Positions 1,193-44,109 are shown, counted from the stretch's first letter. The stretch: DNA of 64,000 bases from Psammoneis japonica (GCA_008632985.1 QPGO01000054.1:124001-188000); one strand, 5' to 3'. Notes: generated from the letters alone by a model not told the origin. Numbers and translations: made by a program.

Positions 1193-2899
1193 AACAAAAC
1201 AAAGTAAAAACAACCAGTCTACACGATACAGAATGCTTGTGATAATTCGTTGTGCCTAATGGATGTAGCTGGGGCTGTGTTGTGCGCTGTGTCTTTCGCT
1301 TTGCTATTCGTGTCGCTCGCTTTGACATGCTGTATGAAACTGAAAGTGGCATCAAGAATCGGTGTGGCGTGAGACAAAAGGAGGGATTTTGCTCTCTTAA
1401 CTTTGAAAAGTGGCGCAGCAGCTTTGTAGAGTAGGTCACAGACACAATAAGGAAGTGAGAAGGCATCAGCATGCACGGTGCTGAATGTCTGGTTCTCGCA
1501 ATTGCTGTGTTTCTGTCAGATCTCGATGTGACCAGCTGCAACGTCATGTCTCTCTGACTTGATTGCTCAACCTTGAGCTTCACAGAATGCCAACGCACCC
1601 CTTCTTGAATCACACCACCAGCCTGGGAATCCTCTCTCTCCCAACTGTGCGCAAGTGGCTGTGGGGACACACCCTCAGCACAAAAGCACAATTTTTGAAG
1701 GTTGTGGCTCTGGCGACACTTTCCTGCAGTCACACCACTGATGGTGTGAGGCTGCTTCTGTTGGTTTTGTGTGCACCACAAATTTTGAAAAGCACTCCTC
1801 TGCAGCAGCAGCAGCACTGGCATCTCTTTATCCCAGATCCTTTCCCTTCTGCACTTCTGAGAAACTCTTTGTCTGATTGCAGCCAGATGGAGGAACTCAA
1901 CAGATTGAACTCAGAGGTGACCACTGGGCTTGGAATTTGAAATGAATCACAGCCAAGACACAGGCCCAATCATCAGAGAATGACACAATTGAGTGCTCTT
2001 GGAGTTGTCAGCATGTGACAGCATTTCAGATTTGGAGGATGAACGTGCTGTGCCATGGCTTGACAACAAGACAACAAGGCCAGCCTGAGTGATGCTGCCA
2101 TGCCCCATGGCTCTGGTCTCAGCTTGCACTTGTCAGACTGCTGATTCTTGCTCAATTTTCTGCTTTTGTCACAATTGTTTTGCCATCTTTGGCTGCTTTG
2201 TTTGGTCTCATGAGTCAACATTTTCCTCAGAGCAGCTCTTGCAAAGGTGCTTGGGTGGTCTTTTGAGCAAGAGCATGCAGAAATCTTTCAAATTTCTTTG
2301 CGTGCAACTTTCTCTCTCTCAACTCAAGCGCTGCTCCTCTGTTTTTTTTTTTGCTTGCACAATCCATCACAGCTTTGTCATCCATTGTGGCCAACAATGC
2401 TGCAATTCTTGCTGCAGCTGAATGCAACAAAGCTTTCCTGGCTGCACAGCCCTTCTCCCAGGCAGGTGCCAGGGCCAAGGCTGCTCTTTGTGCCAGCCCA
2501 GCATGCTGCTGCTCTGACACATTGCAATCTGTGCCACATCAGCAGCTGAGCCTGTGTCAGCAGGGCAGTGCAGACAATGATGACCACCATTGCACGGGCT
2601 TGTGGCAGCCAGAAGATGATGCAGCTCAGTGCTGCATCTGTCAAGACATGCTGACCAACATGCCAGCCATGGATGTGCATGATTGTTGGTCGTCATGCTG
2701 GCATGATGCATGGCTGCACAACATTGTCCAGATTGTGCAACAGGAATGTGTGCAATCATGCACACAGTTGAAGCACAGTTAAAAATCCATTCAAGGTTGT
2801 GAGTGTCACAAAACACATGAGGAACAAGCAAGAGCCAATTGTGGTGCAATCAAATCAGCCACACCCAGCCACAGTGCAATGGCAACAACACCAACAGAG

Positions 2900-3440
2900 T
2901 TCCATCAGGGACCAGTTTGCTTGACAATGAGAACCCTGAGTGCACGAGACAGTTGACTGTGGTTGATTGTTGCCAGTCCATGTGGAAATGTGGTTCAAAA
3001 GTGCAAAACCATGTCACAATGTTGGAGCCAAATTTCAGCACCCAAGCACAACTCTTTTGTTGCCATGATGCCAACAGGGAACATTTTTAGGAACCATCTT
3101 TGCAAGAACCAACTCAGCTGGTTCTTGGTGGAATGCAGAACCTGCTCTTTCACTTGCCAGGTCACAGAGACATCATGTTGTGTCAGAGTTTTTGCAACAC
3201 TGTCATCAAACAAGTTGTCGCAATGACCAAATCTTGTGCTTGCTTCAAGGGCTCCTTCTGCTCCCATGCACCCCAAGCCCATGGTGTCTCTGCCTGCAAT
3301 CTTCTTTGCCCTTGGCTCCTGCAAATGACACCAATGGTCTGTCACTCACTGACAGTGGCAGCAGCCCAAGCATCCTTTGAATGTTTGCACTTTGGTGTGC
3401 CAGCAGCACTCACAGAACAGCCTGCTGTTGCCACCTCTTT
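2900..3440. repeat. left part of dispersed repeat, copy A (homologous to ~19650-20155)
   Basis: AACCCTGAGTGCACGAGACAGTTGACTGTGGTTGATTGT...CATGTGGAAATGTG (~2931) matches AACCCTGAGTGCATGACAGCTGGCTGTGGTTGATTGT...CATGTGGAAATGTG (~19674). Similarity ends at GCCACCTCTTT. Confidence 0.8.
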
Positions 3441-5082
3441 GTGTGCAACATCTTCTTGCTCTCAACAAAATCCATTGACAAGAATCAAAAGCACTGCACC
3501 TGTGCAATTGCACCATCCACATGTGTCACAGTTTTTCAAAAATCAACATGTTTGTCCCTGCAGTTGTGACTTTGAATGATGTTCTGACACTGGCTCATTT
3601 TCAGACACAAATCTTGCATTGCCAAAGTTGTCATTTGAGGTTGCTTGACAACTGGTTTTTCCAGCAGTGTCATGATGGATTTGTGATGTTTTGTTTTGCT
3701 TTGTTTTGCGGCCCAGCATCTTGTTCAAAGTTGCTTGGTTCATTTGTTTGGAAGAGCTTTGGTTTGATTGCCTGCTGTGTTGTTTTTAGAGCTTGTGCTG
3801 CATTGGTCTCTTTGTTGCATTGGACACACCACAGCTCAGCCACTGACCCATCATCATTGAACCAGACCCCACCTTTTGACAGACAATGCAGCTGCAAAGT
3901 TGCACCTTTTTCTTCTGTCCTCCACCAGCATCAATTTGCTCTCTAGAGCCCAACTCACAGTGTCAATCAGCCCCAGCAATGGCCATGTTGTCATTTGATT
4001 TTGACAAATTCTAACATCAACCCAGACTGCAGTGTGTCAATCTAATTCTGCATTTTGTTCAACACCAGCACTTTGAAGCTGTCAATTGACAATGAATGAT
4101 GTGCCACAAACACTTTTTGGGGTGCCAAGGCAACTGGACTGGTGCATGTTTGCAACTTGATTTTGTGTTTTTGTTTTGGTCTGTGCTTGCACATTGCACT
4201 CTGTTTTGGCTGCAGCAGTCATGGATTTGTGTGGGTGAGCACCAAATCAACATGTCTACTGTCTGTGCAGCTCTTCCTCGTTGCTCTGTAAATGCACCCA
4301 TTTTGTCTGTTGCAGTGCAGAGGGCTGTTCAGATGCCACATGCTTTTCCAAATGCCGGCACAAATTTGCTTGTTTTGGAGAAAAGAGGATGAGCATTCTC
4401 TGTGCACCTGATGCCAGGACCCAGACTGCATGAGTGGGGCAGTTGCAAAACCCAGGTTTTGGCAACAGTCAACTGTTTGACATTGAAACTTTGTGCAAAG
4501 GTCAATGCAGACAATTTTGGTGCTGCATTGCAGCAACTGTGTCATCAGAAAGATTGGTCACAAAGACTCACTCTTGACAACTCACGGAGGCAGGAAAGCT
4601 TGACAATGCTGAGAGACAATCTTGCAGTTTTCCTTTTTTAATCTTCTTTTTAATTTGCACTTTGGGCATTGACCCAAGACAAAATGGCCACAACCCTTGG
4701 CAACAGCCATGACCTCTTCAGCAACAGCCATGACACCTTGACAGACTGGCCACAACCCATTTCGGGTGAGGGTCAATGGCTCTCATTGCAAAACAATGAT
4801 GACTTGTGTCCCAAATGGTTCTCTGACAAGATCCATTCTTGCTTGAGCTTCAGATCAGGATGAAATGGAGGAAGTCTTGAATGTTCATTGCAGTTCTCTT
4901 GGTTGCTTCTGACAAAGAGCAACTTGTTTCAAAAAGAGTGCCTCTTGCAAATTTCTCCATTCTCCTCCTCTCAAGCCATTTTGCCACAACTCCCACATTT
5001 TGGTGGCATTCCCAGTGCATTGCTCTTTGAAGTTTTACACCTTGTCCACTGCCATTCAGCAATCAAACCTTTGAACCAGCAA

Positions 5083-6570
5083 CTCTGGAGTTTGGAAATT
5101 CAAGTCTGCTGTCATTGGGGGAACAAGATCCATGGGGCCACAACACCACAAAATCAATTTTTCAATGCAAAGCCACAGTTCTCAAAGTGTTCACTGGGGT
5201 GCACCAGGCAACACCAGCAGGGTTCTCAGCTTGCTGTTGTCAAGTTGGTTGGCATTGTCATGGGGTCATTTGACTCTAGAGTTTGGAAGCTCAAGTCTGC
5301 CACTGTTGAACACAACATGACATGGGGCCAGCAGGACACTTCAGCATCAACTTTGCAATGCCCAATGCCAGCTCTTAATTAAAGTCCCACCTGGGGTGCA
5401 CCAAAAACCATCAATGCCCTCTGCTGGCAGTTGTCAGGCTGATTGGTCATGGTGTCATGGGGTCCTTTCACTCTGGAGTTGGGGAGCTCAAGTCTGCTCC
5501 TCTCCTCCTGTTGGGGACAAGGTGACATGGGGCCACAACACCACAAGATCAACCTTGCAATGCCCCCAATGACAGCTCTTGCAGTCTTTCCCTGGGTCCA
5601 CCAGACACCACCAGTGTCCTCAGCTTGCAGCTGTTGGGTTGGTTGGAACTGTCATGGGATCCCTGCAATCTGGAGCTGGGAAAGCCAAAAGTCTGCTGCT
5701 GCTGCTGGGGACAAGGTGACATGGGGCCACAATGCCCTAAGATCATCTTTGCGATGCTCAACTGCAGCTCTTAAAGTCACACCTGGGGCCCACCAGACAC
5801 CACCAGGGCCCTCAGCTTGCAGCTGTCAGATTGGTTGGTGTGCCATCATGGAGTTCTTTCACTCTGGAGTTTGGAAATTCAAGTTTGCTGCTGTTGGGCA
5901 CAATGTGACAGGGGCCACAATCCACAACACCACAAGATCAACCTTGCAATGCTCAAACACAGTTCTCAAAGTGTCACCTGGGGTGCAACAAATGCAGCTG
6001 GGGTCCTCTGCTTGCTGTCGTCAGGTTGGATGGCACTGCCATGGGGTGCTTTCACTCTGGAGTCAGGAAATTTAAGTCTGCTGCTGTTGGGCACAATGTG
6101 ACATGGGGCCACAACACCACAAGGTCAACCTTGCAATGCCCAACTGCAGCCCACAAGAGTCCACCAGTGTCCTCTGCTGGGTGGCAGTTGTTGGGTTGGT
6201 TGGCACCACTGTCATGAGATCTCTTTGTGCTGTGGAGCTGGGAAAGTCAAGACTGCTGCTGTGAGGGACAAGGTGATGTGGGCCCACAATGCTGCAAGGA
6301 TCAACTTTGCAATGCTCAGCTGCAGTTCTTAAAGTCACACCTGGGGCCTGCCAGACACTGCCAGTGCCCTCAGCTTGCTGCTGTCAGGTCAGTTGGCACT
6401 GTCATTGAGTCCCCTCACTGTGGAGTTTGGAGGTTCAAAGTCTGCTGCTGCTGCTGCTTGGAACAAGGTGACACGTGGCCACAAGACAAAAGATCAATCT
6501 TTCATTGCCCAACAACAGCTCTTGAAGCATTGCCTGTGGCCCACCAGATGCTGCCAGTGTCCTCAGGCCA
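5083..6570. repeat. diverged tandem array, about 8 units of ~190 bp
   Basis: The anchor CTCTGGAGTTTGG...AAGTCTGCTG...ATGGGGCCACAACACCACAAGATCAA recurs at ~5083, 5274, 5471, 5668, 5862, 6055, 6230 and 6418. Confidence 0.9.
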
Positions 6571-6876
6571 GAGTGCAAATGCCCCCCACTTTGTTGCCAA
6601 TTTGTTCATTGGCCAATGCCTTTGCACCCACAGTTGTTGTGCTGTGGTTGAGCTCAAAACAAATCCCCATGCACTGTGACACCAATTTTCCTCAAGTCTG
6701 GGTTTCCTGCTTTGCTGATTTAGCCAGTTTGTCAAAATGAATTTGTTCACCATGAGTGCACACTTGACAAGAACACAGACTTCTTGTCTCAAGCAAAAAT
6801 TCAATTCTGAACAAGAGCAACTGCATTTTCCAGATGTTTTGCATGTCAGGTCTTGGTGCTCCTGTCACTGATCATC

Positions 6877-7700
6877 CCCAAATTTCAAAGATTTCATTCC
6901 CAGCAGCAGCAGCAGCAGCAGCAGCACATCTTTCTCCAAGGAGTCAAGTTGGCATCAAAATGGTGGGCCTTTCAAAAGAAGCCACATTTGGTCTGCAACA
7001 ATGCCACACCATGACCAGAGAGCTGTGTGGCATGTGGCTGTTGGCAGCCATTTTGTTTTTGCTCGGAGCTGGTGCTTCACCCTCCCTCAATGACACACAA
7101 AGGAGCTGCACACATGATTTGGGTTTGGAGTGTTCTCACATCAGTTGTCCTGCTGCCAAGATGTGTCCTTTCAATGACCACAAATCATTGTTTTGAGAAA
7201 CATTGCTGCTGGCATGTGTGCTTCTTGGCAGGATCTCTGTGCTGTCACAGACATTTTCCCAGGCTGGGGCAAACTTTGACAATGTGCCCAACTCTTGTGT
7301 TTCTCTGAACAGGTGCATGAAGTCAAGCTTGTTGGCGCCAACTCTCCCAGCACTCATTTTTTATGCCCCTGATGTTGTTGAGAGTGCCACCACATGACAA
7401 GAAGCCTTGTTGCTTGAGTTGTGGCTTTTTCACCTCCACCTGCTTCCAAGATGTTCCTTGCTCCATTTGTCAAAGCACCGCTGGGCTCTCCAAGTGCAGA
7501 TCAGACATTGTTCTCAGCAGGTGGTTGGCAATGCGGGGCCAGTTGCTTGCAAGAGTGGGCCAAGACAGCATCCTGAACATTTGCTGAAAAATGCACTCCT
7601 CTCTCCCTGTCTGTTTGCACAGTGTCAGGAGGAAACACTCTCTGCTTGGATGCAATGCCCCACAGAACTCCTGTGGATTGGTCTAGTCAAATCAAGCATG
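6877..7700. repeat. right part of dispersed repeat, copy A (homologous to ~20157-21000)
   Basis: CCCAGCAGCAGCACATCTTTCTC, AAAAGAAGCCA, GCAAACTTTGACAATGTGCCCAAC and GGCTTTTTCACCTCC are shared with 20160-20760 in the same order. Confidence 0.8.
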
Positions 7701-9559
7701 TGAGACACATGTTGTGGTGTTGTGCCTGCTGGTGTGTTCACTGCCAGCAAAAATGTCATTGTCTCTCATTGACTTCTTTGGCAACAGTTGGAAGTGAAGC
7801 GGGCTTGAGGGGATGGCTTGGCGTGGCTTTAAAAGTTGCACCTTTTTCATGCAATAACTCAATTTGCCCCCCCCCCCCCTCCCCTGCAGATTTCCACATG
7901 TCAAGCCCCAGAGGAAAAACAACATGTCTCTGAATCCATCAACAACACATCAAGCAGCACCATCCACTGACAGCACCAATGATCCCCAACCAAACTGCTG
8001 TGATTAAAAATGACACTGCAGTCCAAAAAAAGCAAGAAACCCTTGGCTGTGTGGCACAGGAACTTCTCTTTTCTGACCACCATGATCACAGAGCAAAGAG
8101 CTGGTTGACCATTTGCCACCATAAAGCCCATCATGGTCCAGAGAATGTTGGGTGCTGTGAGTGACAGCGGTCTTGGCATCACAGCAGTGTTGGATCCCTC
8201 AGCTGCTGTGACTTTCTTGGTTGAGTGATTGCCCCACCAACTTGCTGATTTGCATTGTTCCCCACCTCATCATCTGCCATGAGTGAGTGCTCAGGATGCT
8301 TCATCTTGCATTTTGTGGCATGGCCCCATGCTTCTTTTTTTTGTTCATGTTTCATTTCCCTGCTTGTTTGGGAACATGGCCTCCTCAACTTTTTCCAAAA
8401 TTCTGCTCCTGCCAATCCATGGAAAAGCCTTTGTGGGGCATTTTTGGCTTTGACTTTGTTGACACACCAATTTGTCAACATGGGAGGTGACCAGATCCAC
8501 CTTTGGATTGTTCTTCAAATGCAACAAGTGATGCAGCCTTTTCCACAGGTTTTTTCATGCAATTTTGGAATTTGGTTGGCAATGTTGACAAAGTGACAGG
8601 GGGAGCCAATGGAATGTTTGTTGTTGCTGTTGACACCACAAGAGGAAAGCACTGGCAACAAAGCACCATGGGTTGAAACTGCAAAGGATTGGAAGCTGCA
8701 GATGCCAACTTCTTCACATGGGAAACAAAGACCAAATTAGTGCTGTGGTGACAATTGGTTGGCTGCTGCAACACTGGCATCAGAACACAAAGCTTCAAAT
8801 CAAGAAGCGTTGTGTGACTTTGTGGGAAGAGGAGTGATGATGTGTGGTGTGTGTGTGTGTGTCTCTAAAACAACTGCACACTGCATGACACAGGGGCAGT
8901 CTTGCAAAGAACTGTCAAGTCTTGTTTTCACTCTCAAAGGTGCAAACAACCATGTTCGACAGCACAACAGGAAGTGAAAGAACGTTGAAGCACCCAAATC
9001 CAAGCAAAAACAGAATGTCTTCTCATTTTTTCATCATTTTGTTGATTGACTCAACACCTTGTGGGTGAAGCAAGGACTCAATTCAGCCACAAGGAAGGGC
9101 TCAAAATGGTTTTTGCTGGCAGTGCATGTCTGTGCCTTGCTTTTGTGCACACGCCCCTGGGCATTCTTGAAGCTCATCTGTGTCCCATTGAAAGGCAGCC
9201 ATGTCACCATGAAATGTCATTGGAGCAGCCAAACTGAGGCAGTGGCAGGGAATCTTTGATCCCAGCATTTTGTCTGGGTGAAGTGGAAATGCACATGACC
9301 ATGCTTCAGAGCAGGGAACAATTTACCCGGGGGGCAATCGAACAATTTGGGCCACCTTTGATTTCCAATTTGGGTCTCAGCCAAATTGCAATGAATGAAG
9401 TGACACACACGTGCTTGGTTTTTAATTTGTTGCCTTCATCAACAATGTGTGTCCATCATGGATGATTCCATTCTGCTGCAGCCTCATTTTTGGTTCAACC
9501 TCCCCCAATGCATCAGTGTTCCCTGCTCTTCATTTTTGATGCACCCGTTCCATCAACTC

Positions 9560-10480
9560 CATTTGTTTTCAATTTGCCAACATGACACAAAACATCAAAA
9601 CTGCTGCCTCTTGTGGTGGGTCCATCACCCACAAATCCATGTCTTTGATGTTCTCCTCTTCTTCATCTGCTGCTTCCAACTGCTTGCTTGCATTCTCTTG
9701 GCTGTCTTCCGTCCCATCCACACACTCCCAGAACTGTTTCAACCAAACCTCGTTGCACTCGTCTGCATCTTTGCTCAATCTCTTTTGGTCAATCTTGCTT
9801 CCCAATTGTTTTCATCTCTCCAGTCCCTTCTTGTTCCAACCCTGTTGACTCTTTTGCATTTGATTCATTTGATTGCCCTGCTTCTTGCTGCCTTTGCTGC
9901 ACTTTGCCTCCGGAATGCACCCCTCCTTCTTTTCCACCTTCAACTCCTCCTTTGTTTTGCCATGCATGTGCGCCCACTTGTCCCAATTGTTCTCCAAGAT
10001 TGACAGGCCAAATGCCTCATTGCTCACAGATGACAACCTGTTCAAGCAATGTCTTGATTTGAGCCAATGCTTCCACATCATTTTTCCCACCACTGTTGGC
10101 AGGAAGTGCAGGGTGAAGTGGCTGTGGGCATCCATGTCATCTCTCCCCTTTAGCATGTCACCCAGCAATGACATCTTGGCATTTTCATCAGCTTGTGCAT
10201 TTCTCTTGTCATGATCCATGCACCCTGTTCACTCACGCAACACAAAGCAACAATGTGTGGGCATTGTTCCATTGTCCCATGACCTCTTGGACCAGTTTCA
10301 ATGCAGCACTTGCGGAAGAACTCTTTCTTGAGTTCCCCACACTTTTTGTTCCTCCTTCTTGTTGTCTGCCTTCACACCTCGTCCTTTGACAATTTCCAGA
10401 ATCAACCCTTTTTTCTTGGGGCACATTGATTTCAGACAGCACAATGTCAGCTGCTCTTCCGTCGCAACACTTCATTGCCT
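9560..10480 (-). pseudogene. decayed transposon-associated ORF (SDEAF...LENNWDRW...GWxxxG family)
   Basis: FLPTVVGKMMWK...SSVSNEAFGLSILENNWDKW...KCSKG...GWNKKGLER resembles, from recall, a repetitive diatom ORF family that accompanies Plavaka-type transposases. It is broken by frameshifts and stops. Confidence 0.55.
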
Positions 10481-11474
10481 TTTTGTTCAGGAATTTGTGC
10501 TGTCAGAACGACGTGTTCTCACAGCAGCTCTCCAAAACAATCTTGTCCCTGTCACCAACAAGTTCGTTGTGTCACTTCTTCCTTCTTTGCTTGCTTGTCA
10601 TGTCATCTTCTGCACAGGACAAGGTTGGAGTCCCACCCATCACAACTCATCCACCTTCTCCTGTTTGCATCATGGTTCTCACCAGCACATCCTCCTGTGT
10701 TGCGGCTGACCCGTCCTGTTCCTGTTCTTGCTGCGACGAGCAAAAATTTCAGTGAGTCCTTCGCAATCGTCACTTGTGTCACTCCAATGTCTCTTGCCTC
10801 ATCTCTCTGTGGGCTTTGGAATGGCACTCTCCCTTCCCTCACGTTGGGCATGGTGGAGCAAGCATTTTGACTGCTTTGCAAAAAAGTGACATTTTTCTGT
10901 GCTGTGCTGTGAATCGTCCAGCACTGTGGTGCCCCACGATGGTCCACTCATGCGCCTGCACTGCGCGCACCTGTTTCCACAGGTTCTCACGTGCACCTCT
11001 TCTTTTCAAAATCCTGGCACATGTTCTCATTGGTCAGATCCATCCAATGTTTTTGCAGGTTCACATGAATGCATGTGTGGCAGATGTGGTTCACGCAACG
11101 ACTCGCTTGATTCATCTCTCCCAGCGTCTGCCCTCCTCCCCCACCATGGTGTGTCCACTCTGGTCCCTGCCAAAAAACAAGAACTGTGTGTGATGGAGCC
11201 ACTGCATTCCTAATTTGCCCTCTGTGCCAGAGCCAATGTCCACACCTTCACAGCAAATGCACCAACACACAATGCCATTTCCTGATGGATCCTGTTCAGT
11301 CTCCCAGATTGCATTCATCTGGCATGTTGGGACAGAAGTTCATGACATTGATGCACCCTGCCTTCCAGCCATTCCCATGCCTTTCATTCCTCTTCCAGCA
11401 TGGGTTGCCTGTGACACCAACGTGTCCACTCTTTCACTGTTTTTACATGGGACCAGTCTCCCTTTTTGCATCTT

Positions 11475-11690
11475 GGTCTTGCTTGACACATTCAGCGCTT
11501 CACCTCCAATTCACATTGGTTGAATTGTCCGGCACAACAGATGTTGGGATGAGAAAGCATGTGATCATCGTCTCCTCCCCATGGGTCTTGCTTGACACAT
11601 TCAGCGCTTTGCCTCCAACTCACATTGGTTGAATTGTCCAGCACAACAGATGTCGCAGTGAGAAAGCATGCAATCATCGTCTCCTCCCCA
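11475..11690. repeat. direct tandem duplication, period 109 bp
   Basis: GGTCTTGCTTGACACATTCAGCGCTT...ATCATCGTCTCCTCCCCA occurs at 11475-11581 and 11584-11690. Confidence 0.95.
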
Positions 11691-13544
11691 CACAAGAGAT
11701 GGACCACGTTTTCCCACTCATTCCCCCATTTTGCACAGTCATTGACAACACATTCTCTGTCTTGGCACTTTGAGAAGATCTTTTTCAATGGCAGCCTGGC
11801 CGCATGTGTTTTGCAGTTGTGTGCACATCCTCATGTGCAGTGCCGCTGACGGTGAATGGGGGTGTGCCATGTTGCTTCCACATGCCTGCACAGGTCTCCA
11901 AATGTCTCCATGCTGCAGCCAACATGAATGGTTTCTTCTTCGACCACAAGATTCAACAGCACAAATTTCAGCGCACCTTCACAAACCATTGTCCTGTCTC
12001 TTTCTTTGCTGCATTGACTGGCTGTGACAAGTTCAGGCCATTGTTGCAGATGTTTTGAACTCTGTTCAGCTTTGCAAGAACAAGGCTGAGCTCAAAAAGC
12101 TGGGCAACCCACCACCCTTCAATTGGTCACTTTGGCACAAGGAGCATTCAAAGATTTTGGTTGACAGTTGGGTTGCCTGCATTTCAAAGGTGAGGACTGC
12201 ATGATGCAGGGCTTGTGCATCTCTTGTGGCCAATGTTGTGTGGGTCATCATGACATGAACAACTGCAGCTGGTGATGACACAGGATGATGTTTGCCGGCT
12301 GTTTTTTTGTCTTGGATGTGTTTGGTGAGATTTGGTCCTTTAAGTTGGGCTGGTGTGCAACAGCCCGGAAGGCCGTTGGTCTTTGCTGCAACAACAAATT
12401 TGACACACAGCCAATGCTGACATGGGTGCACCACAATTGTGCTCAACTTGGCTGAGTGCTGCAAGATGTGGTGGACCTTGAACATGACAGTCCCTCCCAT
12501 CCTGATGTCATGCTCTCTGCCAACACGCTCAAGCATTTGTCACTGGATGATTGTCATTCTTGGAATGATGCGTTGCCAGGTGGTGACTGGGCCACTGGTC
12601 CACCCGCAGCACACAGGGACTGTTTGAAAATGCCCGCTTGTCCTGTGAGTTTGGTTTGCTGTGGACCTGCTTGAGGGGCACAGTGAACAGCACTTTTTTG
12701 CCATCTTTGTGTCAATTGAAGTTACAAATGCAGGCATCTCCACAACTTCTTTGCCGCAGGTTAACTCAACAACAATTTAATCTGCGTTTCTTTTTGAATT
12801 GTTGGAAATGGTGATTGTTGCTGTTGTTGGCAACATTGCTGAAGTTGGCAAAGTCGTCATTTCCATTTGGAGCACTCTCAGTGTAGTGTCACCAACCTCA
12901 ACATGAAGCACAAGAACTTGCAGTCGACAGCGACGCTAAAGGATGGCTCTGTCATGTTGGCAGAAGACACCGCATTCTCCGAAAAGACCGACACTGTTGT
13001 TGCTTAAGTCGATTGTTGAGATGACATCATTTGTGTTCATGCAAAAGTGAATTTTGGCTTTGCCACACTGAATTTCCGTTTCATTTGATGCAGTTGAGTT
13101 AGCCTTGCAATGGTCTAAGATTCAAAATGTGTTCTCGATCTTTGTCTTTGGTCGCATCGCCATTTTCAACCTTGGCATTTGCCAATGAATCACACATGGA
13201 ATGGATTCCTTCCCAGCCTTTTTCCACACAAAGGAGAGTTGTTAGCCTTTTTCGTTGCTTGGGAGGCATTGCCACAATCACCTTGCACGTTTCATCACCA
13301 AGTTGGAAAGCCGTGTGTTTCAAAGATGCACCACACATGCGCCCCATTTCAGGTTTTGTTGTTTGGGTCAGGGAAACTGCAGCACCTCTGCTCCAGCCAG
13401 AGCACGTGCGCGTGAGGAGTTCACGTGCAACGTCACCTCTAGAGTGGCGCGGGGGAAGGGACAGATGCGGAGCAAGGGTGGAACTGTGCAACACAGGCAG
13501 GGAAAGGGATGGGGTTGGAGCCAGGGTCAGTGAGTTGGGACTTT

Positions 13545-14115
13545 AGTTTGGTGGAACAATGGGTGAGTTGGTCAGCAAGTGTGACTTGGTCATCATGAAG
13601 CTGAGGCTTTGGAGGCTCCATTGTGATGGAGTTGAAGTGTGATGGGTTGAGCCAAAAAGTGCGGAACATCTGTGTTTTTCCAGGTGGCAGTGGGGGGTGG
13701 GAGGATGGAAGATGGGGACTGCTGTGCATGGGTGCATGTGGAATGGGTGGCGGGATGTTGGTTGGAGGATTTGGGTGTTGCTGATTGGATCCAAAGAGCA
13801 GGCGGTGTGCAAAACAGCCGGGGGCACTGAAGTGGTCAATGGTGAAGGGGACAAGGTGGATTCCGGCATTGTTGAGGGCAGATGTTAGGGTGGCTTTGTG
13901 TTGGGTTTCATGTGTTTTGTTGAACTTCCGTTTGGTGCTCACATGGTGTGCCTTGGCAGAAGGGTTGAGAGCAGGGGCAGGCAAGCCAGGAGCAGGCAGC
14001 GGAGGAGGTTTGGGGACAGCGACGTTGATTGCAAGGCATCAGTGTCCAAGGGGGGAGGCAGCAGAAGTGGCTGGGCTGAGTTGGATGCCTGTGCCAGCTG
14101 GCTGCTTGAGAGGTG
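13545..14115 (-). mobile_element. non-LTR retrotransposon relic, C-terminal restriction-like endonuclease region (CRE/Ambal-like)
   Basis: QPAGTGIQL...LAINVAVP...SAKAHHVSTKRKF...GIHLVPFTIDHFSAPGCFAHRLL resembles the RPAD..AIDVT..K..LIPFTxDxxGxxG pattern of RLE-type LINEs. Confidence 0.55.
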
Positions 14116-14199
14116 AGTGAGGTTTGGATCGTAAATTTCCTCTTCTTGGCGCCTTGCTGTGTTCCTTTGTGAACAAATCGTGGAGAAGCTTGCGGGAAC

Positions 14200-14600
14200 T
14201 CATCTCTTGCCACTTCCAAAACAAAAAAAAAGCAGAAGAGGGCTGCAAAGAAGAAAGCATCAGCAGCAGAGACAGACAAAGATGAGATCAAGACTGCTGC
14301 AACAACAAAGAAAACTGAATCTTCGTCTTCCAGTCGAAAGAAGAAGACAACCAAACAGACAGAAAAAGCAAAAAGCAGTGAACAGTGAACACTTGGATGT
14401 CAAGCTGAGTCACAAGAGCCCCAATTACAGAATTCAATGTGAGCTCAAGGAATTCATCATGAATCCACCACCCAATCTCAAAGTCAAGGTTGGATCCAAC
14501 ATTTGCATTTGGATCGCAACACTGACCGGAGCCAAGAACATGACCATTTGTGAGGATGAAGTGTGCAAGCTTCACAGGTCCCTTGGTCCCCCCCTTGTTT
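14200..14600 (+). pseudogene. fragment of a ubiquitin-conjugating enzyme E2 (UBE2W/UBC16-like)
   Basis: SPNYRIQCELKEFIMNPPPNLKVKVGSNICIWIATLTGAKNMTICEDEVCKLH matches the E2 N-terminal pattern RIQRELxxFxxNPP..W..xG..xTxYxGxxYxL. The match is lost before the catalytic Cys. Confidence 0.75.
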
Positions 14601-14679
14601 GGATTTCCCAGTGCAAATGTTGCCAGACTTGTCTTCTGAACCAAGGCACAGCACGTTAACACCCGCGTTGCACTCCAAG

Positions 14680-17520
14680 AATGAGAGACATTTGTTGGAA
14701 CTGCTGCAAATGTGCGATGACATGTGCGCTCCTAAAAAACACTTCCAAGATGTGTTGGATTGGGCACACAATGAGCAAGACAACCAATTTGATTTCATGC
14801 ACTTTTCGGGCAACAAAGACACATTTGTAAATCAGCTGCAGGAAATGTTCTGCCTTCCTCCACCCACCACCATTCGCAACGCCCAAGAACATGTCGGCGG
14901 AATGCCACCACATCTTTGCTTAGTTGATGCAGCCATTTGGAATGTGGCATCCCAAATGCAGTGCCTGCTGTTGGCCAACCGAGAGTTGATGTTGCCCGAA
15001 AACGTCATTTGCAACAATTAATTTGTGGAATCCGTGCCAATGGTGCCATGCCAGCCCTCGTGCGATGGAGCTGCAGGATGGATTTGTGTTCCAGAGCACA
15101 GATGCATCTTTGCCAAGATGCCTCACTGGACTTCATCATTGGTGTCTTGTTGTGCATTGACAAGATGTGGGTGATGCAAAATGGGAGATTCACTTGCAAG
15201 CCGGTGGTTGGCACATTGTCTTGCCTCACACTTGAAGCCAGGAACCCACCCGAAGCCTGGTTTGCACTGGATTGCATGACTTCAATTAGACTTTCATCTT
15301 CGGAAGTCACACAATTGGGGAGCACCAGGGCAAAGGCCTTGACCAGTGTCCAGTGCAGGAACTGCCACACACAATTGGAGGCAATGCTCAGAAGCCTCCA
15401 TGTCACCCAATGGGGCACAAAAATGAAGGTCAGTTTGTGTGGCATTAAAGCCATTAAGAACGTAAAACTCCCCATTCCACTCTGCTGCTCTGACAGACTT
15501 GGATCTGATGCCTTGACACAATGATGCAAAGTGTGCGGAAGGAACCAAGCAAGCTGACTTCATTGGTTGGGCGTGTGACTGCCCAAGCAACCGCGCACAC
15601 AACCCCATCCACAAATGCCAATTTCTGACTCACGAAAAGTGGGAGCCCATTGTGTGTGCAGCATTGGGTCTAACCAACCACACAGAAGCACACTGAGATG
15701 AAGCAAAACAACCCCTGTCATCAATGTCGCTGTGTCTTTAGCATGACACCAACTGACCTGATGCACGCCTTTGATGAGGGTGTCATCAAGAAGGTGCTAG
15801 AGGTCTTCTGTGAAAGTCTTGGCAACAGCAGAAGGGCTGACCTCAACAGAATGATGCATCTTGTTGTCAACCAAAATCACAAATGGAATTGTCCGGTTGC
15901 CCAAAAGCGGAGTTTACGACAGGTGTGACAAATCTCAGTTGCCCAAGGGCAACCGAGCATGTCGGTGTCCTGTTCTACATTGCCGTTGTCCTGAGAATGG
16001 GAATCAGGAAGAGACGATTCACCAATGTTCTCAACAAACTTCATGGCAAATTGTGCAAGAAGGCCAAAGACTTGAAAGAGTCATCTCCAGAGGAACATCA
16101 AACACTCAAAGCAACTTAGATGGATTGTGATGACAAAGACCGTCTTGCCACAAACAACTGGGCACAACTGATGGAAATGCTTCTGTGCTTCCATGCCTGG
16201 ACAAAGAGGAAGGATGGCTTCTGGAATGCAAACGATGCAACGGACAAGGAAATTTGCAAGGAGAGGGCAGCGGAGTCAATTTCCATCATGCTCAAAGGCA
16301 TTCTTGGAATGGCCCCACGAATTAAAGTCAGCAAAAAAAGTGGCAAGTTGAAGATGAAGGGAAGTGGATGGGACCTCCCAAAAATTGAATGTCCGAAGCA
16401 CTTGCCAAAAAACACATCCAGGTGTGGATTGCCAGATGGCTGCAGAGCTGATTGGATGGAAAGCAACCACAAGAACTTTGTGAAGGACCCGGGCTCACAA
16501 GCCCAGAAGCGACACTTGTCTTTTGCAATCCAAATGGCCAAGAACCTGCAAGGAAAGATGCCAGCCTTGACCGCCCGGTCCACTTGCGGTCTCTGCCCAA
16601 ACGAGTTAAAGTCGAAAAGCATGGAGAAAGGGAATGATGCCAAGTTCCAGGCAGTCTTCCAGGGTCCCGTGCGAGCAGTTTCAGTCGAATTTCGTGTGGG
16701 AACAACGGAGCAAGCTGAAACCTGGGCCCACGCAACCCAGGAATGGTTCTCAAAAACTGAAGGACTGGAGCTTCCTCCATCGGCAACAAAACATTTGTGC
16801 CGCGCTGTTGGGAGGTGATGCCCGGCTGCCACATGCGTGATGGGGTCCACAGAAGCCCACATGGATGGCATCGGGATGGTCAAGGCACACCCAAGGTGCC
16901 ATTCTGGAAAACCAGTTTACAACTGGGTAAAATTTGCTCAGAAATGCTGAGGGAGGGAGAGTCTTGTTTCAGGGATGGCAGTGTGTTTTTGAATTGCATT
17001 GGCAATGGGGAACTTAAAGATCCACTTGCATTGGTGCAACAATGCAGCCGCCATCTGCAGAGAGACAGCAACCAATTCAAGTCAACCATTTTGGAGTGAC
17101 ACACAAAATCATGCTTGTCAGTTGGTGAGCCGATGTTTGATCTTGTCCTGGTTTCATCAATGCAACAGAAGGCACTGGTGTTAAAGGACAACCCTTCTTT
17201 GAAAGAAGAAGAACCAAGATGGAACGTGAAAACCCAAGAACAAATGGGAAACCCTCATTGCAAATTGTTGGCACAGGATCCACTGAATCTGTACAAGGGG
17301 GTGAAGCTGAGGGTTGCACACTTGGAAACCGCAAGATGACAGCACTGTAGAAAGACAAGCAATGCCTCAAGACTGGGCATGTGAACTTCACAAATGCTCT
17401 GAATGGATGGAACTGTTCACAGATGCTCATGTGCTGACTGGCACTCAATTTCACCCAGCGAATGATGAGAGTGCAACATTCCAGGAACAATTCACGCAAA
17501 TGTTCTGGATTGATTTTTAA
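14680..17520 (+). mobile_element. decayed Plavaka-type (CACTA/EnSpm-related) transposase
   Basis: Ordered motifs LLCIDK..GRFTCKPVVGTLS..EAR..AWFAL, RNCHTQL, TPTDLMHAFDEGVIKKVL, FTTGVTNLS..ATEHVGVLF, CFHAW, GWDLPK and HKNFVKDPGSQAQKR, split by frameshifts and stops. Confidence 0.75.
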
Positions 17521-18504
17521 AAATAGATTTCCAAGTGGACCAAAGACGCAGTTCGTCTTCTGCCTCACGAAAGCAACAGAGCAACCACCTGTTTTGCCTC
17601 CCGAGTGCCGGCATGGTGTGGGGACAGACAGGCCTGCCCTCCCTCCTTGGATTTGTCAGTTTCTCACAGAATTTGTTGTTAAGTTGCCAACGTGACCAGG
17701 ACCCTGCACTTCCAACAAATGTTTCTTTTTCACATCAACAATGGAAGTGCACTTTCCACTGAATGGAGTGGACTGCTGAAGGCTGCCTTTAACATGGACG
17801 ACCACTCCCAAGCTTCCATTGTTGGTGGAAGTGACTTCAATGAAGCAGCCCTTGGCTGCGCAAACAGGTTTTGACCAAGTCGAGCCATGTCATGCCAGTG
17901 ATTGTCGGAGGTGGTGCAATTGATGTGTTGACCCTTGCAGATTTGGTTTTCCCCTCCACGGCAACCAACTTCTTTGCCAGAGTGCGAGTTGTGAATGCCG
18001 CACAAATGTTTTTCATCACTTCATCCACTGCTCTGTTGCTGACAAATCTCGTGGAAGCATTGGCAAAATCCAGTCTTTCATCGCCTTTGTTTTCTTGTCA
18101 ATGTCTGCAAGACACACAAAACAGAAAGGGAGGCAGCCGACAGTTGTGATGAGTCCCATCATGTGGTTTGCACCCAGCTGTGCAAAGTTGGCGATGAGGG
18201 GAGTGATTGCCAACATGCTGTCTGGTGTGCTCTCCCATTTTGGCTCCGTGGGAATGTCCTGCATCATTGGTGTCATGACTGGCAAGAAGGACATCGCACA
18301 TGCAAAAACACTTGTTGTGCCAAACATCACATGGCGGTCAGATCATCTGGTGACACCAAGCATGCCATGAAGGTGGAAGACTCCCGTTCTTGCCTCCAAT
18401 CAAAACAAAGATCAACACCGTCGCAAGTGCCGCAGGAGGTGGCATCATGATGATCAACCATGCCTGGAATGGAACAGCCTCCAAAAGCTGCACCCCTGCA
18501 ACAG

Positions 18505-18780
18505 GCAGGGGGCATGGGATGAACCCTGGCATCACACTCTCTGGCTCGCAAGCCAAGAAAGTAAGATCCGGTGGCTGTGCCCCCAAAGTGAGGAGGGAGC
18601 TGGGGACACAAACTGACAAAATCAGTGCAGGGAGCATCCACTGACATTGCTGCACCCCCAATTGGAGTGAGGGCCATGGGATGAACCCTGGCAGTGACAT
18701 CAGATGAGCCGCCAAACAAAACAGGACGTCCGGCTGTGCACCCCCAACAACAATGGGGGCCATGGGATGAACCCTGGCAG
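18505..18780. repeat. three degenerate copies of GGG(C)CATGGGATGAACCCTGGCA
   Basis: The motif occurs at ~18509, ~18671 and ~18758. Confidence 0.8.
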
Positions 18781-19499
18781 CACATCGGACATCTCTGGTG
18801 CCATCCAAGCAAGGTGGCATTGCATAAATCCGAGTGGACAAAGATGGTTCTTGACTCAGCAGTTTCACTTCCCAGTCCTGGGCGGCACTGTTGTGAAGCT
18901 TCTTTGACAGTTGAGAGTGTCAGGTGCCCCTCCTTGCCTTTGAGGAGCCTGGTTGGGATGAATGGTGACCCATGGCACCAGTGAGGATGTGTTGTTTGCA
19001 TGGCAAAATGAAACTGGATGGCAACAATGTGGGCACGGTGCAAAAAATTGTGAATGAAAATTTTGGGGCAGGGATGTAGGAGAGCCAACAAAAATTTGGG
19101 AGCAAACAAACATGCAGAGTGAACAGGACATTGACACAATTAAAGGCTGAAGGTTGAAATTTTTGCGTTCGTTAGAAAACAGCTTCACTGTGGGAAAGAC
19201 AGAGGTGATGGATTGCGCAAAAAATTAGAGCATCAGTTAAAAAGAGAAGAAGAATTTTGCATGGGAAGTCCATGTAGAAAACACACACGAAGGAAGCCCT
19301 CTGGGAAACATTGAGTGATGCAGTCTGCTTTGAGTGGGCAAGACAAATTAAATCAAGCAAACATCAATTAAATTTGTCTGGGTGCTGGGGTCAGGTGGGC
19401 GCCGCTGGAATCATGAGGGGTGGTGTGAAATCAATGAAGACTGTTTAAATTAAATGAACTTCACCCCTCATTTGAGGAACCAAAACCCAACGGAACAAT

Positions 19500-21140
19500 T
19501 TGACCCCCTCATTGAACTGGCCTCTGATGTGCACACAGTCAAGACACAATTGAAAAGCCAGCCAAGGTTGATGGTGTCACAAAACATGTGAGGGGCAAAC
19601 AAGAGCTCCTGATTGTGAGGACATGTGACAAAAAAACAAAGCTCTGTCTGGCATCAGTGTGCTTGACAATGAAAACCCTGAGTGCATGACAGCTGGCTGT
19701 GGTTGATTGTGGCCAGCATGTGGAAATGTGTCTCAGAAGTGCTGGGCACAATGTCAAAGTCATTGAAGTGCCATCTTTGCAGCCAACTTTGCTGGCCCTT
19801 GGTGGTTTGCAATGGCAGACTCTGCTCTTTTCATTTGCTGCTGGGATTGTTGACACACCATCTTGTGTTGGCTGCAAGTTTTTGGATGACAACTTGGTTG
19901 GCAAACAAGTTGTTGTCACAATGACCAATCTTGTGCTTGCTTCGACAGCAGCTTCCTTTGCTCCCACACACTCCAAGCACCCATGGTGTCTCCACCTGCA
20001 AGAATCTTCTTTGCTCTTTGGTTCTCCTGCAAACAATGCCAACAGGCTGTCACTTGTGGACAGTGACACAGTGGCCCAACAAGCATCCTTGGAATGTTTT
20101 GCATTTTGGTGTGCTGGCAGTGCGCCCACAGCACAGCCCATCATTGCCACCTCTTTCCAACTCCAAATGTTTCCTTCCCAGCAGCAGCACATCTTTCTCT
20201 AAAGAGTCAAGTTGATGTCACAACAGGCCTTGCAAAAGAAGCCATGGCTGGTCTCCAACAGCAGCACACTGCATGACCAGAGACAGCACAGCTGTTTTTC
20301 TCCTGAGTTGGAGCTGTGCTGCTGCACCCTCTGTTGATGGCACAAATGGCAGGCTCAACATTTGGATTTGGAATGTTCTTACATTGGCTTTCATGCTGCC
20401 AAGATTTGTGTCATTTCAACAGCCACACTGTGTGTGTGTGTGCCAGGGGGGTGGGGGGAATGCTTGCCTTGAAGGAGGGGGTGCTTGCCACTTGCCATGC
20501 ACATCATCATCCAGAAGAACAGTTCTGGCAGGACCTGGGCCATCTTGGACAAGTCTCCCAGACCAGAGCAAACTTTGACAATGTGCCCAACCCTTGCATT
20601 TGGGTGGATGCATGAAGTCAAGCATGTCAGCACCAACTCCCCCCCCCCCAGCACTCATCATTTCTCATGCCCGCCATGTTGCTGCCGAGAATGCTGGCAT
20701 CACAAAAAGCCTTTTTTGTTTGAGTTTTGGCTTTTTTCACCTCCTGCCACTTCCAAGATTGCTCCATTTGCCAAAGTGTTGCTGGGCTCTTCAAGAGCAG
20801 ATCACTCTCATTGTTCTTCGCAAGTGACAGGCAACATCATGTCACAAAATGTTGGGCCAGTTGCAAGCTGCAGGAGCGCACAGCCCGAGGTGCGTGTGCA
20901 CCTCCAAAAGAGCACTCTCACTGAAATGACATGCCCTCTCCCTGTCATTTTACACAGTGTCAGGAGAGACACTCTCTGTCTGGGTGCTGCACTCCAGAGC
21001 TGCAAATCAGGTCCAACAATCCCCTGTGTGCCAGTTGCTGCCTCCTCAGCACAGCGTTGTGTGTTTGTCCCAACATGCCCCACACGTTCTTCTGCCTCAT
21101 CTGCTGCCAATCGAGAGGCAGCACTGTCACTGTGACATGC
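19500..21140. repeat. dispersed repeat, copy B (uninterrupted)
   Basis: Contiguously homologous to 2900-3440 plus 6877-7700. Confidence 0.8.
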
Positions 21141-21471
21141 CATCTTAGTGCATCGCAACCAAGTCGGTGGCAGGGATTCTTCGATTCCAACATTGCTCGC
21201 ATTGTCTCCAAGTTTCGTTTTATGCACCTCTTCTGCAAGGCACCGAAAGCATGTCAGTCGAGCTTGGCATGCAGGCTCCTCGTACAGGACACGTAGAATT
21301 GAACACAACGTCAATTCGATGTGGAGTTTGAAATTTTGGCGCATTTTGTTGGTGTCACGACGGCCTGCAACTAAAACAGATGTTGTTTCAGATTTTTGGA
21401 TGAGAAGGCTTGATTGAGGTTGTTGAATGTCACCCTGGCTCTGGACGTGGTCGCTTTGAAAGTTAACAAGC

Positions 21472-27775: not shown

Positions 27776-29203
27776 CTAGGCACTTTCTTCAGATGTAGTT
27801 TCTTCTAAAGCGCATACCTTCAATTCTTCTGGCATCGACACGAATTGCTGTCGACAGCACGGACAAAGCATTGGAAAGTTGAGAGCCTCCTTGACGGGGT
27901 CGTCGATGGGGTTGGAGTCGCGATTTCGTCTCTTTCTCCCAACAGCCAAGAGCCAGTTCAAGATACAGTCATCGTGGAATGCATGAGAGCAGTTTGAATT
28001 TGCCGCCCACGTAATGACCTCTCCCGCAGCGAAACTGCTCAGGCACACGGCACAACCATTTGGAACCTCTCGTTGCGGCAAATCGGATTCTGCGTTTTCG
28101 CTAGCTGCGGCAACGCACACACCACCAGGAGGGATTGAAATAACAACATTGGAATCCTCGACGATGTCATCCGGTAAGGTGTCGCTGACGTCTTCTTCGT
28201 TGGCATCATTCTTTTTTCCCATCTCGATATCCAACGATTCGTCAGGTTCTTGGGTGGAAATTGGCTGCAGGCTTATCGGCTGGGAGTCAGCCTTCGCTAT
28301 AAAGTCTTTTTTCGTAAGGGAGGTGCTGCTGACGTCTTCTTCATTGGCATCGTTCTTCTTTCCCATCTCAATATCCAACGATTCGACAGGTTCTGGAGTG
28401 GAAATTGGCTGCAGGCTTACCGGCTGGGAGTCAGCCTTCTCTATGAAGTCCTTTTTCGTAATGGTCTGAATAGATAGATGGAAAGTGTAAGACACCTCTC
28501 AGTTTTACCTGCTAAACATGAAAACCATTGTTCTCGCTGCTTACCGAAGAGTACTTGCTCAACTGTTCCAGCAGAAAGTCTTGTCGTATTTCTTCCTCTT
28601 CTCTCCTCGAAAGAGCTGAACTAGTGGCATTGGGATTCTCCAGTTCCTCTGCTCTTCGCCTGGTCAAAAAAAAGTAGTAACAAAGTCGAAAAATGTAAGA
28701 ATCAATGCTCTACATTTCTCTCTAACTAGCTTGAATCTAGCTCTAGCTACTACTACGGTAGCTTAGATAGAGTAGAGACAAGGCAAAAGCTGCTTGTGCC
28801 AAAAACTTGTGCGACCAAATATCGCGCGATTGAATAGCCACGTCATTCACGATTATTCATGCGAACCCCAACTCACGAATGAAACTGCATGACGATGGAT
28901 GCCTGATGTGTTTTTTCTCATGGCGAATGGCGAAACAGACAAGATGCAACGTAACATGGTTACTCACCGAGCAGCCTCATATCGCTCTCGAGCAGCAATA
29001 TACCACGAGGGCTCTTCTCTTGGTTCAATATGAACATGCCATCTTCTTTCCTTGAGGCGTGTCAACCAAAGTCGTCGCTTTCTCTCGCTGAAACAACAGG
29101 GAAGCACCAAGAAAAGAATCAAGGCAACCAACCACACTGCAATAAATCCTCCACTTCTTTGTGCAAAGCTTTCGGCGCCGTTGTCGTTTTGGTCTCGATC
29201 CAT
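27776..29203 (-). CDS. membrane-anchored RING-H2 E3 ligase-like protein; exons 29203-28968, 28659-28545 and 28465-27776
   Basis: TM segment FIAVWLVALILFLVLPCCF and RING CAVCLSSF...CSHAFHDDCILNWL...CPCCR. Two GT-AG introns keep the frame. Confidence 0.85.
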
Positions 29204-40789: not shown

Positions 40790-41199
40790 GCATTCAGGAT
40801 ACCTCAACGAAAGGTCCGCCAAGGAAGAACCAACGAAACGGCACGCATTTGAATTTTTGCTTGTATTATAATTCTAATAATGACTTTGCTTCCCAACTCT
40901 GTTCTACTGTATGGGCGTCCTTTTGGAGTGGTATGTGAATGGGTATTTAGGAAAAGAAACAACATTTTAGCTTGCCTTAGATCAACAACAACAGCTTGGG
41001 TTGATCGGTTCGGGCTCCGCTTGCTTTATGTGTGACCAGAAATTTGTCATCACGTGATTTCTCACGACAGACGACGAGCGAGAACGGACCTCTATCTTTC
41101 TTTCCCTCTCTTCATGTTTTTTTCCTTGTCCAAAACGCCACACAGGCAACAATTGATTGATCGATCGATTGATTGAGACACCTTTGATGTCGACGCAAG

Positions 41200-43740: not shown

Positions 43741-44109
43741 TTATCCTAAGAGATGATAATCTACGATGGCTGTTTGCGCCACTCAAAAATCAAACTACCT
43801 CAACAAAATGTTTTTCGTTTGGATCCACTCTAGAGCAGCACCGACCAGTCGGTCGATGGTCGAAACGGTTGTCAAGGGTCTGGCCTTGGCACGGTGCGAC
43901 AGCGAGCGACAGCGAGCGACAGCACAGTGCAATCTTTACTACACAATAGGGCCCTAACCGCCCGCAACCCGCAAAGAGAGAGCTTGTGAAGACGCGACGT
44001 GGCTGATTGCTGAGCATCGAGGAAGAAAACAAGGATTGGGATAGTGTACTGTATCCACGACGAGCGAAGCAAACATTGAGTACCAGTACGAGAGATTGCT
44101 CTTTCAGAG

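Follow-up and report, generated by a model that had tools for sequence, protein, structure and literature searches.

TpA and CpG are both lost from repeat blocks of a diatom-like genome, probably through two context-specific mutation processes

Fungal repeat-induced point mutation (RIP) changes C to T mainly at CpA, creates TpA and lowers G+C, and to our knowledge no cellular process that mutates DNA specifically at TpA was known before a preprint of 2026. In that work on integrated nucleocytoplasmic large DNA virus (NCLDV) and virophage DNA of Bigelowiella natans, Mettrop et al. (bioRxiv 2026, 10.64898/2026.01.13.699255) report mutation-accumulation lines in which two integrated viral regions received 231 of the 302 nuclear point mutations; 230 of these 231 were A-to-G or T-to-C, all 230 on TpA, at a rate about 1000 times the background. 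The TpA-poor genes of B. natans are described as enriched in reverse-transcriptase and DDE-transposase domains, and the account rests on one species and two viral insertions (10.64898/2026.01.13.699255). In diatoms, repeat blocks of up to 30 kb are CpG-methylated, and Cyclotella cryptica is reported to have binary methylated and unmethylated domains (PMC5124317). Here we analyze a stretch of 64,000 nt from Psammoneis japonica (GCA_008632985.1 QPGO01000054.1:124001-188000; hereafter the window, with positions counted from its first nucleotide), in which one block of 20 kb and two further domains are depleted in both TpA and CpG. The original prediction for this DNA was a hypermutation directed at repeats that removes both dinucleotides, with A-to-G at TpA, and that matches no described system. 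The composition and the direction of change are borne out below; the claim of novelty is not, since hypermutation confined to TpA and yielding TpG or CpA is on record in B. natans (10.64898/2026.01.13.699255).

The depleted domains, of which the second and third were absent from the features first listed, are as follows.

1449-21145, no strand assigned: block A, in which TpA (except in TTAA-type contexts) and CpG are gone and TpG/CpA are in excess; it contains repeats, a satellite, a transposase relic and a gene fragment.
41094-43741, no strand assigned: block B, a second TpA- and CpG-depleted domain, mostly a 23-nt tandem array.
60007-64000, no strand assigned: block C, a third depleted domain, which continues past the window end.

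Between 1435 and 21145 (19,711 nt) there are 91 TA, against 1305 ± 28 in 200 mononucleotide shuffles, and 246 CG, against 1156 ± 26, while TG and CA together amount to 4394, against 2461 ± 38. The block is therefore nearly devoid of TA and CG, as had been proposed, and an early hand count of 0 TA and 2 CG in the 240 nt at 2521-2760 is exact. Pooled over the three blocks, the observed/expected ratio (o/e) is 0.06 for TA, 0.20 for CG and 1.80 for each of CA and TG, compared with 0.58, 1.00 and 1.13 (TG/CA) in the flanks. These four dinucleotides alone differ between blocks and flanks; the other twelve are nearly unchanged, and so is G+C (0.487 in the blocks, 0.485 in the flanks). In 1-kb windows, the TpA ratio falls from about 0.55 to 0.02-0.16 inside the blocks and that of CpG from about 1.0 to 0.02-0.43, while TpG and CpA, at about 1.15 outside them, reach 1.4-2.2. 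When xTA, xCG, xCA and xTG are summed for each 5' base x, the densities per kb are alike in block and flank (115/119, 114/106, 124/115 and 129/138), as redistribution of sites by transitions among these four classes would predict. The borders of all three blocks are sharp to about 100 nt, in agreement with the earlier description: the last ordinary TA before block A lies at 1448 and the next at 21146. Runs without TA extend to at most 1060 nt in the block, compared with 270 nt in the flanks.

An assembly or sequencing artefact, which the original prediction had named as a possible refutation, can practically be dismissed. Logan contigs, built independently from the short reads of one public run, span 30 of 30 bins of 1300-21290 and agree with the window across the block, with 0-3 differences per piece of 1-1.8 kb; pieces of 1533 and 1243 nt carry none. 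Not one point in favor of such an artefact was found. Contig depth is about 60-70 where the sequence is single-copy and 200-2000 where it is repeated, and the high-depth parts of block A (3.3-7.3, 9.3-10.6, 13.3-14.6 and 18.6-19.3 kb) indicate that much of it is multi-copy.

The direction of change can be read from two protein relics in block A, which were detected solely through PDB sequences and an all-against-all protein search.

14177-14590, + strand: relic of the N-terminal half of an E2 (ubiquitin-conjugating) protein, related to PDB 2h2y_A, to protein P0121 and to loci L001-L004.
14593-17427, + strand: Plavaka-like (KDZ/CACTA-type) transposase relic of about 870 aa with frameshifts and stops, used for polarizing the changes.

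The open reading frame (ORF) at 14135-14656 matches PDB 2h2y_A with E=1.3e-8, over the N-terminal half only. Its intact relative P0121 (296 aa) carries UQ_con (PF00179), and residues 74-209 of P0121 align by tblastn to 14177-14590; a tblastn search with P0121 did not recover the catalytic half. The relic itself has no direct Pfam match, and its correspondence to the E2 core runs through 2h2y_A and P0121. As DNA, the intact E2 relatives are represented by four metagenome loci, L001-L004. The segment has about fourfold read depth. For the transposase, a search with the ORF at 16120-16815 gave 89 homologues at E<=1e-3, with P0122 (874 aa) first at 1.4e-38. By tblastn, residues 8-872 of P0122 align to 15129-17427 across several frames, and further homologues carry the relic back as far as 14593. 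This relic too is without a Pfam match. The name Plavaka, given to it at first sight, is reasonable, as one of eight homologues scanned (P0133) matches the Plavaka family PF18759 at 26.3 bits over the part aligned with 15135-15449; that score is exactly the cut-off, however, and membership of the family is not firm. The E2 half ends at 14590 and the transposase relic begins directly downstream, at about 14593. From this arrangement it seems that the element either captured a host E2 gene or inserted into an E2 gene and was copied together with part of it.

To polarize the substitutions, 88 homologues were placed on the transposase relic by tblastn, which gave 593 codons with one majority residue. 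Every Tyr codon contains TA, which holds for no other amino acid, and Tyr is the worst-kept residue of the relic. It is retained at one of its 18 sites, whereas all other residues taken together are kept at 279 of 575 (Fisher p=1.7e-4) and the group of Phe, Trp, His and Cys at 54 of 85 (p=7e-6). Seven of the 18 sites now read TGY (Cys), two CAC (His) and two CAG, and one is still Tyr. At codon position 2, A-to-G is found at 7/18 Tyr sites but at only 2/20 Asn, 3/32 Lys, 3/43 Asp and 0/34 Glu sites, so that the change after T (7/18) exceeds the pooled rate for the other four residues (8/129) with an odds ratio of 9.6 (p=4.5e-4); the excess of TA-to-TG over other A-to-G changes, on which the proposal depended, is thus present in the relic codons. 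The individual readings behind the proposal fare mostly well. The Cys of LLCIDK (codon at 15153) stands opposite Tyr in 10 of 18 intact homologues and that of RNCH (15363) in 8 of 19, and TICE in the E2 relic faces IY(E/K/D/A) in PDB 2h2y and in each of the intact relatives. The Cys of VCKL is opposite Tyr in 2h2y but opposite Phe in five closer relatives, and this last reading is uncertain. Arg codons, which had been read as converted to Cys or His codons, do show this change: eight of the 33 Arg columns of the transposase relic are now TGT, TGA, CAC or CAA. In the E2 relic, a TGT stands opposite Tyr and a TGC opposite Arg in all five intact relatives and in PDB 2h2y. By these alignments CpG decay is polarized in the same way as the change at TpA, and both dinucleotides have been turned into TpG/CpA in the repeat blocks, with the relic proteins giving the direction.

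The same comparisons bear on the view that the elements were already poor in TA and CG when they arrived, through selection at the RNA level or as the signature of foreign DNA, with no mutation in place. CpG and UpA are indeed both kept low in many RNA viruses as well as in some mRNAs (PMC3829696). The intact relatives, however, are ordinary: the E2 loci have TA o/e of 0.58-0.65 and CG o/e of 0.93-1.2, the transposase homologues have a median Tyr content of 3.1%, and the eight Tyr columns covered by at least four homologues contain one Cys and four His among 105 homologue residues. Relatives that were TpA-poor, or that bore Cys or His at these sites, would have undone the proposal; they are neither. 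The Cys and His codons of the relic lie exactly opposite the Tyr of its relatives, a relic full of stops and frameshifts makes RNA-level selection implausible, and the signature is shared by satellite, gene fragment, transposon and edge sequence. Repeat copies that differ by TG in one and CA in the other, described below, moreover place the change after duplication. A native origin of the composition is in our judgment very improbable, and a process converting TpA to TpG/CpA and aimed at repeats is supported by the outgroup-polarized evidence, albeit on a small sample.

The codon counts also speak to a mechanism that the original prediction had entertained, in which T:G mismatches arising from deamination of 5-methylcytosine (5mC) draw in patch repair by a Pol-eta-like polymerase whose misincorporation opposite T falls on WA motifs, in the manner of the second phase of antibody hypermutation. 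Such error-prone repair would account for the domains common to both depletions, and TA is a WA motif. It is disfavored by the state of the other WA motif: TpA is mutated and ApA is untouched, with AA/TT o/e of 1.22 in the blocks against 1.15 in the flanks, and A-to-G after A is seen at 5/52 codons (Asn and Lys) against the 7/18 after T. Loss of TA is also more complete than loss of CpG, its supposed trigger, and the mutation at TpA reported for B. natans proceeds without C-to-T changes (10.64898/2026.01.13.699255). We regard error-prone repair as a quite improbable source of the TpA loss.

The TA dinucleotides that remain in the blocks follow a rule set by the flanking bases. TTAA is retained at 1.15 times its density in the flanks (37 sites, with 32 expected from flank density), CTAA/TTAG at 0.45 and GTAA/TTAC at 0.12, and all other contexts at 0.09 or less, including GTAC at 0.011 and ATAT and ATAC/GTAT at 0. 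Of the TA left in four sub-blocks, TTAA accounts for 25-36% in each, compared with 3.2% of the TA in the flanks. These densities are described by an additive half-site model with four parameters, in which either base pair of TpA is lost at a rate fixed by its outer neighbor alone: c(A)=2.95, c(G)=2.19, c(C)=0.98 and c(T)=-0.08. The model fits all ten contexts (observed/fitted 7/7.8, 0/0.9, 4/1.9, 0/0.2, 30/27.5, 8/6.5, 5/8.0, 17/17.2, 1/1.2 and 37/37.7) and is preferred to uniform loss by a likelihood-ratio chi-square of 218 with 3 degrees of freedom. Per strand, T-to-C decreases in the order ATA > GTA > CTA and is about zero in TTA; equivalently, A-to-G decreases in the order TAT > TAC > TAG and is about zero in TAA. 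With the rates of both TTA and TAA near zero, TTAA is immune. The model predicts that TTA changes to TTG and not to TCA, and this is borne out by gains over the flanks of 21.7 per kb for TTG and 10.0 per kb for TCA, a difference close to the amount of TTA lost. In Tyr codons (TAY) the A always precedes T or C, so that the model expects more Cys than His, and seven against two are found. The two surviving Tyr codons, one in the E2 relic and one in the transposase relic, both lie in TTAC.

Whether TpA and CpG are lost by one process or by two can be judged from how closely the two losses go together. Survival of CG is about 4.4-fold apart between two parts of block A, with 30 CG in 7.5 kb (1.5-9 kb) and 211 CG in 12 kb (9-21 kb), whereas survival of TA is nearly equal in them. 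At five of five borders the zone free of TA reaches beyond the zone poor in CG by roughly 100-450 nt, leaving the following strips.

1449-1714, 20819-21145, 41094-41301, 43450-43741 and 60007-60474: TA-free strips with moderate CpG density at the block edges.

The uncoupled survival and the unequal edges point most likely to two processes, and the greater width of the TA-free zone to a TpA loss that is faster or spreads further. A single deaminase of dual specificity, which would act on silenced DNA at the C of CpG and at the A of TpA, each giving TpG on the strand attacked, without spontaneous decay of 5mC, has in its favor that both depletions share their domains to within a few hundred bases, and that amphioxus ADAT2 is reported to edit both A and C in DNA and trypanosome ADAT2 to deaminate C in DNA (as cited in 10.64898/2026.01.13.699255). 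The differing CG survival and edges tell against it. In addition, CpG methylation of diatom repeats is documented and sufficient for the loss of CpG (PMC5124317), and the process in B. natans is described without a C-to-T component (10.64898/2026.01.13.699255). We therefore think a single enzyme unlikely.

Repeats within the blocks give an internal view of the same changes.

5068-6590, no strand assigned: satellite with a 194-nt unit, eight monomers about 70% alike, the highest-copy part of block A.
2700-3460, + strand: left copy, part 1, of a 1.3-kb direct repeat, 70% identical to 19470-20175.
6890-7560, + strand: left copy, part 2, of the same repeat, 70% identical to 20150-20860.
19470-20860, + strand: right copy of the 1.3-kb direct repeat.
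42438-43285, + strand: 23-nt tandem array of about 28 copies with palindromic core GAAACGTTTC.

The left copy of the 1.3-kb repeat is split by the satellite and other DNA. The pair shows 39 double differences, in which one copy has TG where the other has CA, and 190 shared TG or CA sites; in the satellite, 14 columns are mixed for TG and CA, and one column holds TA in three monomers, CA in three and TG in two. Double differences between repeat copies indicate that the change occurred after duplication. Ancestral TA and CG are left at 4 and 4 sites in the 1.3-kb pair and in 4 and 3 columns of the satellite, too few to separate the two sources. Among the 40 of 81 places of between-copy difference that are listed, 13 of 34 events set CG against TG or CA, four are TG/CA doubles and four involve TA, a pattern that would be expected with CpG decay still going on and hardly any TA targets left. 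Together with the CG ratio of 0.20 and the eight converted Arg columns, these 13 events are of the kind left by 5mC-type decay of CpG to TpG/CpA. The core GAAACGTTTC of the 23-nt array occurs with CG, CA and TG variants at one position, CA being far more frequent than TG on the + strand, and illustrates clearly, on a small scale, how CpG decays inside an array. Summed contig depth over the satellite reaches about 2000 against a baseline of 60-70, and the satellite is probably among the most abundant repeats of the genome. Many contig joints fall inside it.

That a satellite and the 23-nt array are affected as strongly as the transposon argues against a further possibility, ADAR-like A-to-I hyperediting of repeat RNA that is copied back into DNA at retrotransposition. 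The 5' U preference of ADAR-type enzymes would match TpA (10.64898/2026.01.13.699255), but the one recognizable element is the relic of a DNA transposon, and a Pfam scan of 242 block ORFs revealed no reverse transcriptase. TG and CA are, besides, raised alike on one strand (1.80 each), and the signature passes beyond the element edges. RNA editing fixed by reverse transcription is in our view scarcely credible.

We consider it probable that two context-specific transition processes have run near completion in silenced repeat DNA of a diatom-like alga. The first would be ordinary decay of methylated CpG to TpG/CpA; the second would be a hypermutation of TpA to TpG or CpA (A:T to G:C) of the kind observed in B. 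natans. Both would act in place, on DNA. The symmetry between strands (TG = CA), the involvement of every kind of DNA, the crossing of element edges and the unchanged G+C suggest that DNA was changed in place over a chromatin domain. Since satellite, gene fragment, transposon relic and a few hundred edge bases are all affected, the target would appear to be such a domain and not a particular sequence. As the cause of the TpA loss we infer an enzyme brought to silenced chromatin; the loss of CpG would reflect 5mC, by analogy with other diatoms.

The tRNA adenosine deaminases TadA and ADAT2-ADAT3 edit A34 after U33. They and ADAR act on RNA, and the 3' preference seen in the blocks (T > C > G, with A excluded) is not known from them; the edited A follows U or T in all of them, as it would here (for the 5' U of ADAR, see 10.64898/2026.01.13.699255). 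A DNA adenine deaminase of the TadA/ADAT2 kind is our foremost, if tentative, candidate, and an adenine deaminase is also favored by the authors of the B. natans study (10.64898/2026.01.13.699255). Oxidation of thymine by an enzyme of the TET/JBP type comes next and is doubtful; a preference of 5-hydroxymethyluracil for TpA in dinoflagellates found no support in the literature searched. Either A after T would be deaminated to inosine, which is read as G, or T before A would be altered so as to pair with G; the two routes are one event viewed from two strands, and sequence alone cannot separate them.

Several points weigh against this explanation. Six of the 18 Tyr sites are now Lys, Glu, Phe, Gly or Ser, and the process leaves them unexplained. 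Of the 18 columns just eight have at least four homologues, and the polarized tests come from one transposase relic and one gene fragment in one 64-kb window. In the expected counts for the flank rule, the gene-rich flanks stand in for the repeats' ancestral composition, an approximation that is tolerable but not exact given contrasts of about a hundredfold. The listed copy differences give no sign of current activity at TpA, and the process could be old and extinct. Finally, the B. natans text, as cited here, gives neither a flank rule nor a CpG component, so the identity of the two processes is not established (10.64898/2026.01.13.699255).

The host is, by the closest relatives of a flanking gene, best described as a diatom-like stramenopile. 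The best named relatives of the M16 peptidase are from Thalassiosira exigua (54%), then Cyclotella cryptica and T. pseudonana (52-53%), and its top match overall is at 68%. A fungal framing, which the original prediction had adopted, does not hold, as the host genes are nearest to those of diatoms. The named flanking genes are as follows.

45256-49842, - strand: clathrin heavy chain gene.
29728-32493, + strand: isoleucyl-tRNA synthetase gene.
56425-59970, - strand: M16 peptidase gene.

Each of these three large housekeeping genes is a single uninterrupted ORF (921-1528 aa), which suggests a very intron-poor genome; the flanking genes are almost without introns. No conserved host gene was found among the ORFs at the block borders that extends into a depleted zone and could polarize the changes, and Rfam and tRNA scans of the window gave no match, hence no RNA-gene relic usable as an outgroup. 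In a RING-finger gene (ORF 27776-28498), a 144-nt unit is present twice at 28177-28464 (- strand) with 90% identity; the gene is normal and not depleted, and this internal duplication is recent and in frame.

The depletion also alters what the blocks appear to encode. Counted in six frames, stop codons number 109 TAA, 42 TAG and 914 TGA in the block against 308, 376 and 743 in the flanks. As TAA and TAG are rare in block A, frames are closed only by TGA, and many long ORFs arise on both strands: between 1501 and 21000, all frames together contain 92 ORFs of at least 90 aa, on both strands, none of which encodes anything recognizable. Pfam gave no real match for these 92 ORFs or for 150 of the 152 ORFs of 55-89 aa (the two omitted sit at the right border), nor for 22 long ORFs when the threshold was relaxed to E=10. 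From blocks of this type, gene callers will probably predict numerous spurious proteins. Long false ORFs in every frame, and relic genes that escape Pfam, would mislead gene and repeat annotation alike.

Set beside the described systems, the locus is closest to B. natans. Both have TpA as the target and TpG/CpA as the products, both concern delimited foreign or selfish DNA beside normal genes, and both carry a long-term signature of scarce TpA and abundant CpA+TpG (10.64898/2026.01.13.699255). Here, too, TpA gives way to TpG and CpA, with Tyr codons turned into TGY or CAY at 9 of 18 sites, and the affected selfish DNA is delimited and lies next to normal genes. The two cases differ in that new mutations were watched in culture in B. 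natans, whereas those of the window are deduced from sequence; in the host, a rhizarian there and a diatom-like stramenopile here; in extent, with a TpA rho of 0.45 in the NCLDV region and near saturation (o/e 0.06) here; and in the targets, which are viral in B. natans, whereas here they are a transposon relic, satellites and a gene fragment, with no virus recognized (10.64898/2026.01.13.699255). In the literature searched, no process of TpA loss in diatoms was found, and the B. natans preprint was the sole case of TpA mutation.

For the CpG half, the nearest likeness is to C. cryptica, where repeat blocks of tens of kb, methylated mainly at CpG, lie beside unmethylated gene-rich DNA (PMC5124317). 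Methylation of this kind in diatom repeats would account for the CpG half of the signature, its presence in the window being assumed from other diatoms; the C. cryptica paper has nothing on TpA (PMC5124317). Diatoms also carry RID-related DNMT4 enzymes, reported as of unknown function (PMC9998398), which could bear on the CpG half only. With fungal RIP the blocks have in common that context-specific transitions, bounded sharply, inactivate repeated or selfish DNA for good. The chemistry is the opposite: TpA is destroyed, with a depletion of about tenfold, in place of the excess of TpA that RIP leaves, and G+C is unchanged and not lowered (0.487 against 0.485).

We read the process described here, on the strength of these sequence comparisons, as a second lineage with a mutator of the B. 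natans kind, acting beside ordinary CpG decay. What the window adds is a diatom-like host, the coexistence with and separability from CpG decay, and a quantitative flank rule with TTAA immunity. It suggests that a process of this kind has reached saturation on the transposons and satellites of a diatom-like alga; diatoms belong to another major lineage, of great ecological weight, and if this is true the mutator would be widespread and a main shaper of algal repeat DNA. It is conceivable, and we offer it as speculation, that diatoms and chlorarachniophytes share an old system, aimed at silenced chromatin, that edits DNA at TpA by a VTA/TAB rule with TTAA exempt and that, together with 5mC decay, erases CG and TA, the two self-complementary pyrimidine-purine steps, from silenced DNA. 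Such a system would constitute an irreversible genome defence of the SAR group (Stramenopiles, Alveolata and Rhizaria), similar in role to fungal RIP and opposite to it in chemistry, and the enzyme could then be sought with the flank rule as its fingerprint. In its concrete form, with TTAA immune and ATA/TAT hottest, this fingerprint is testable, can be compared with the mutations listed for B. natans and can also serve for judging candidate enzymes.

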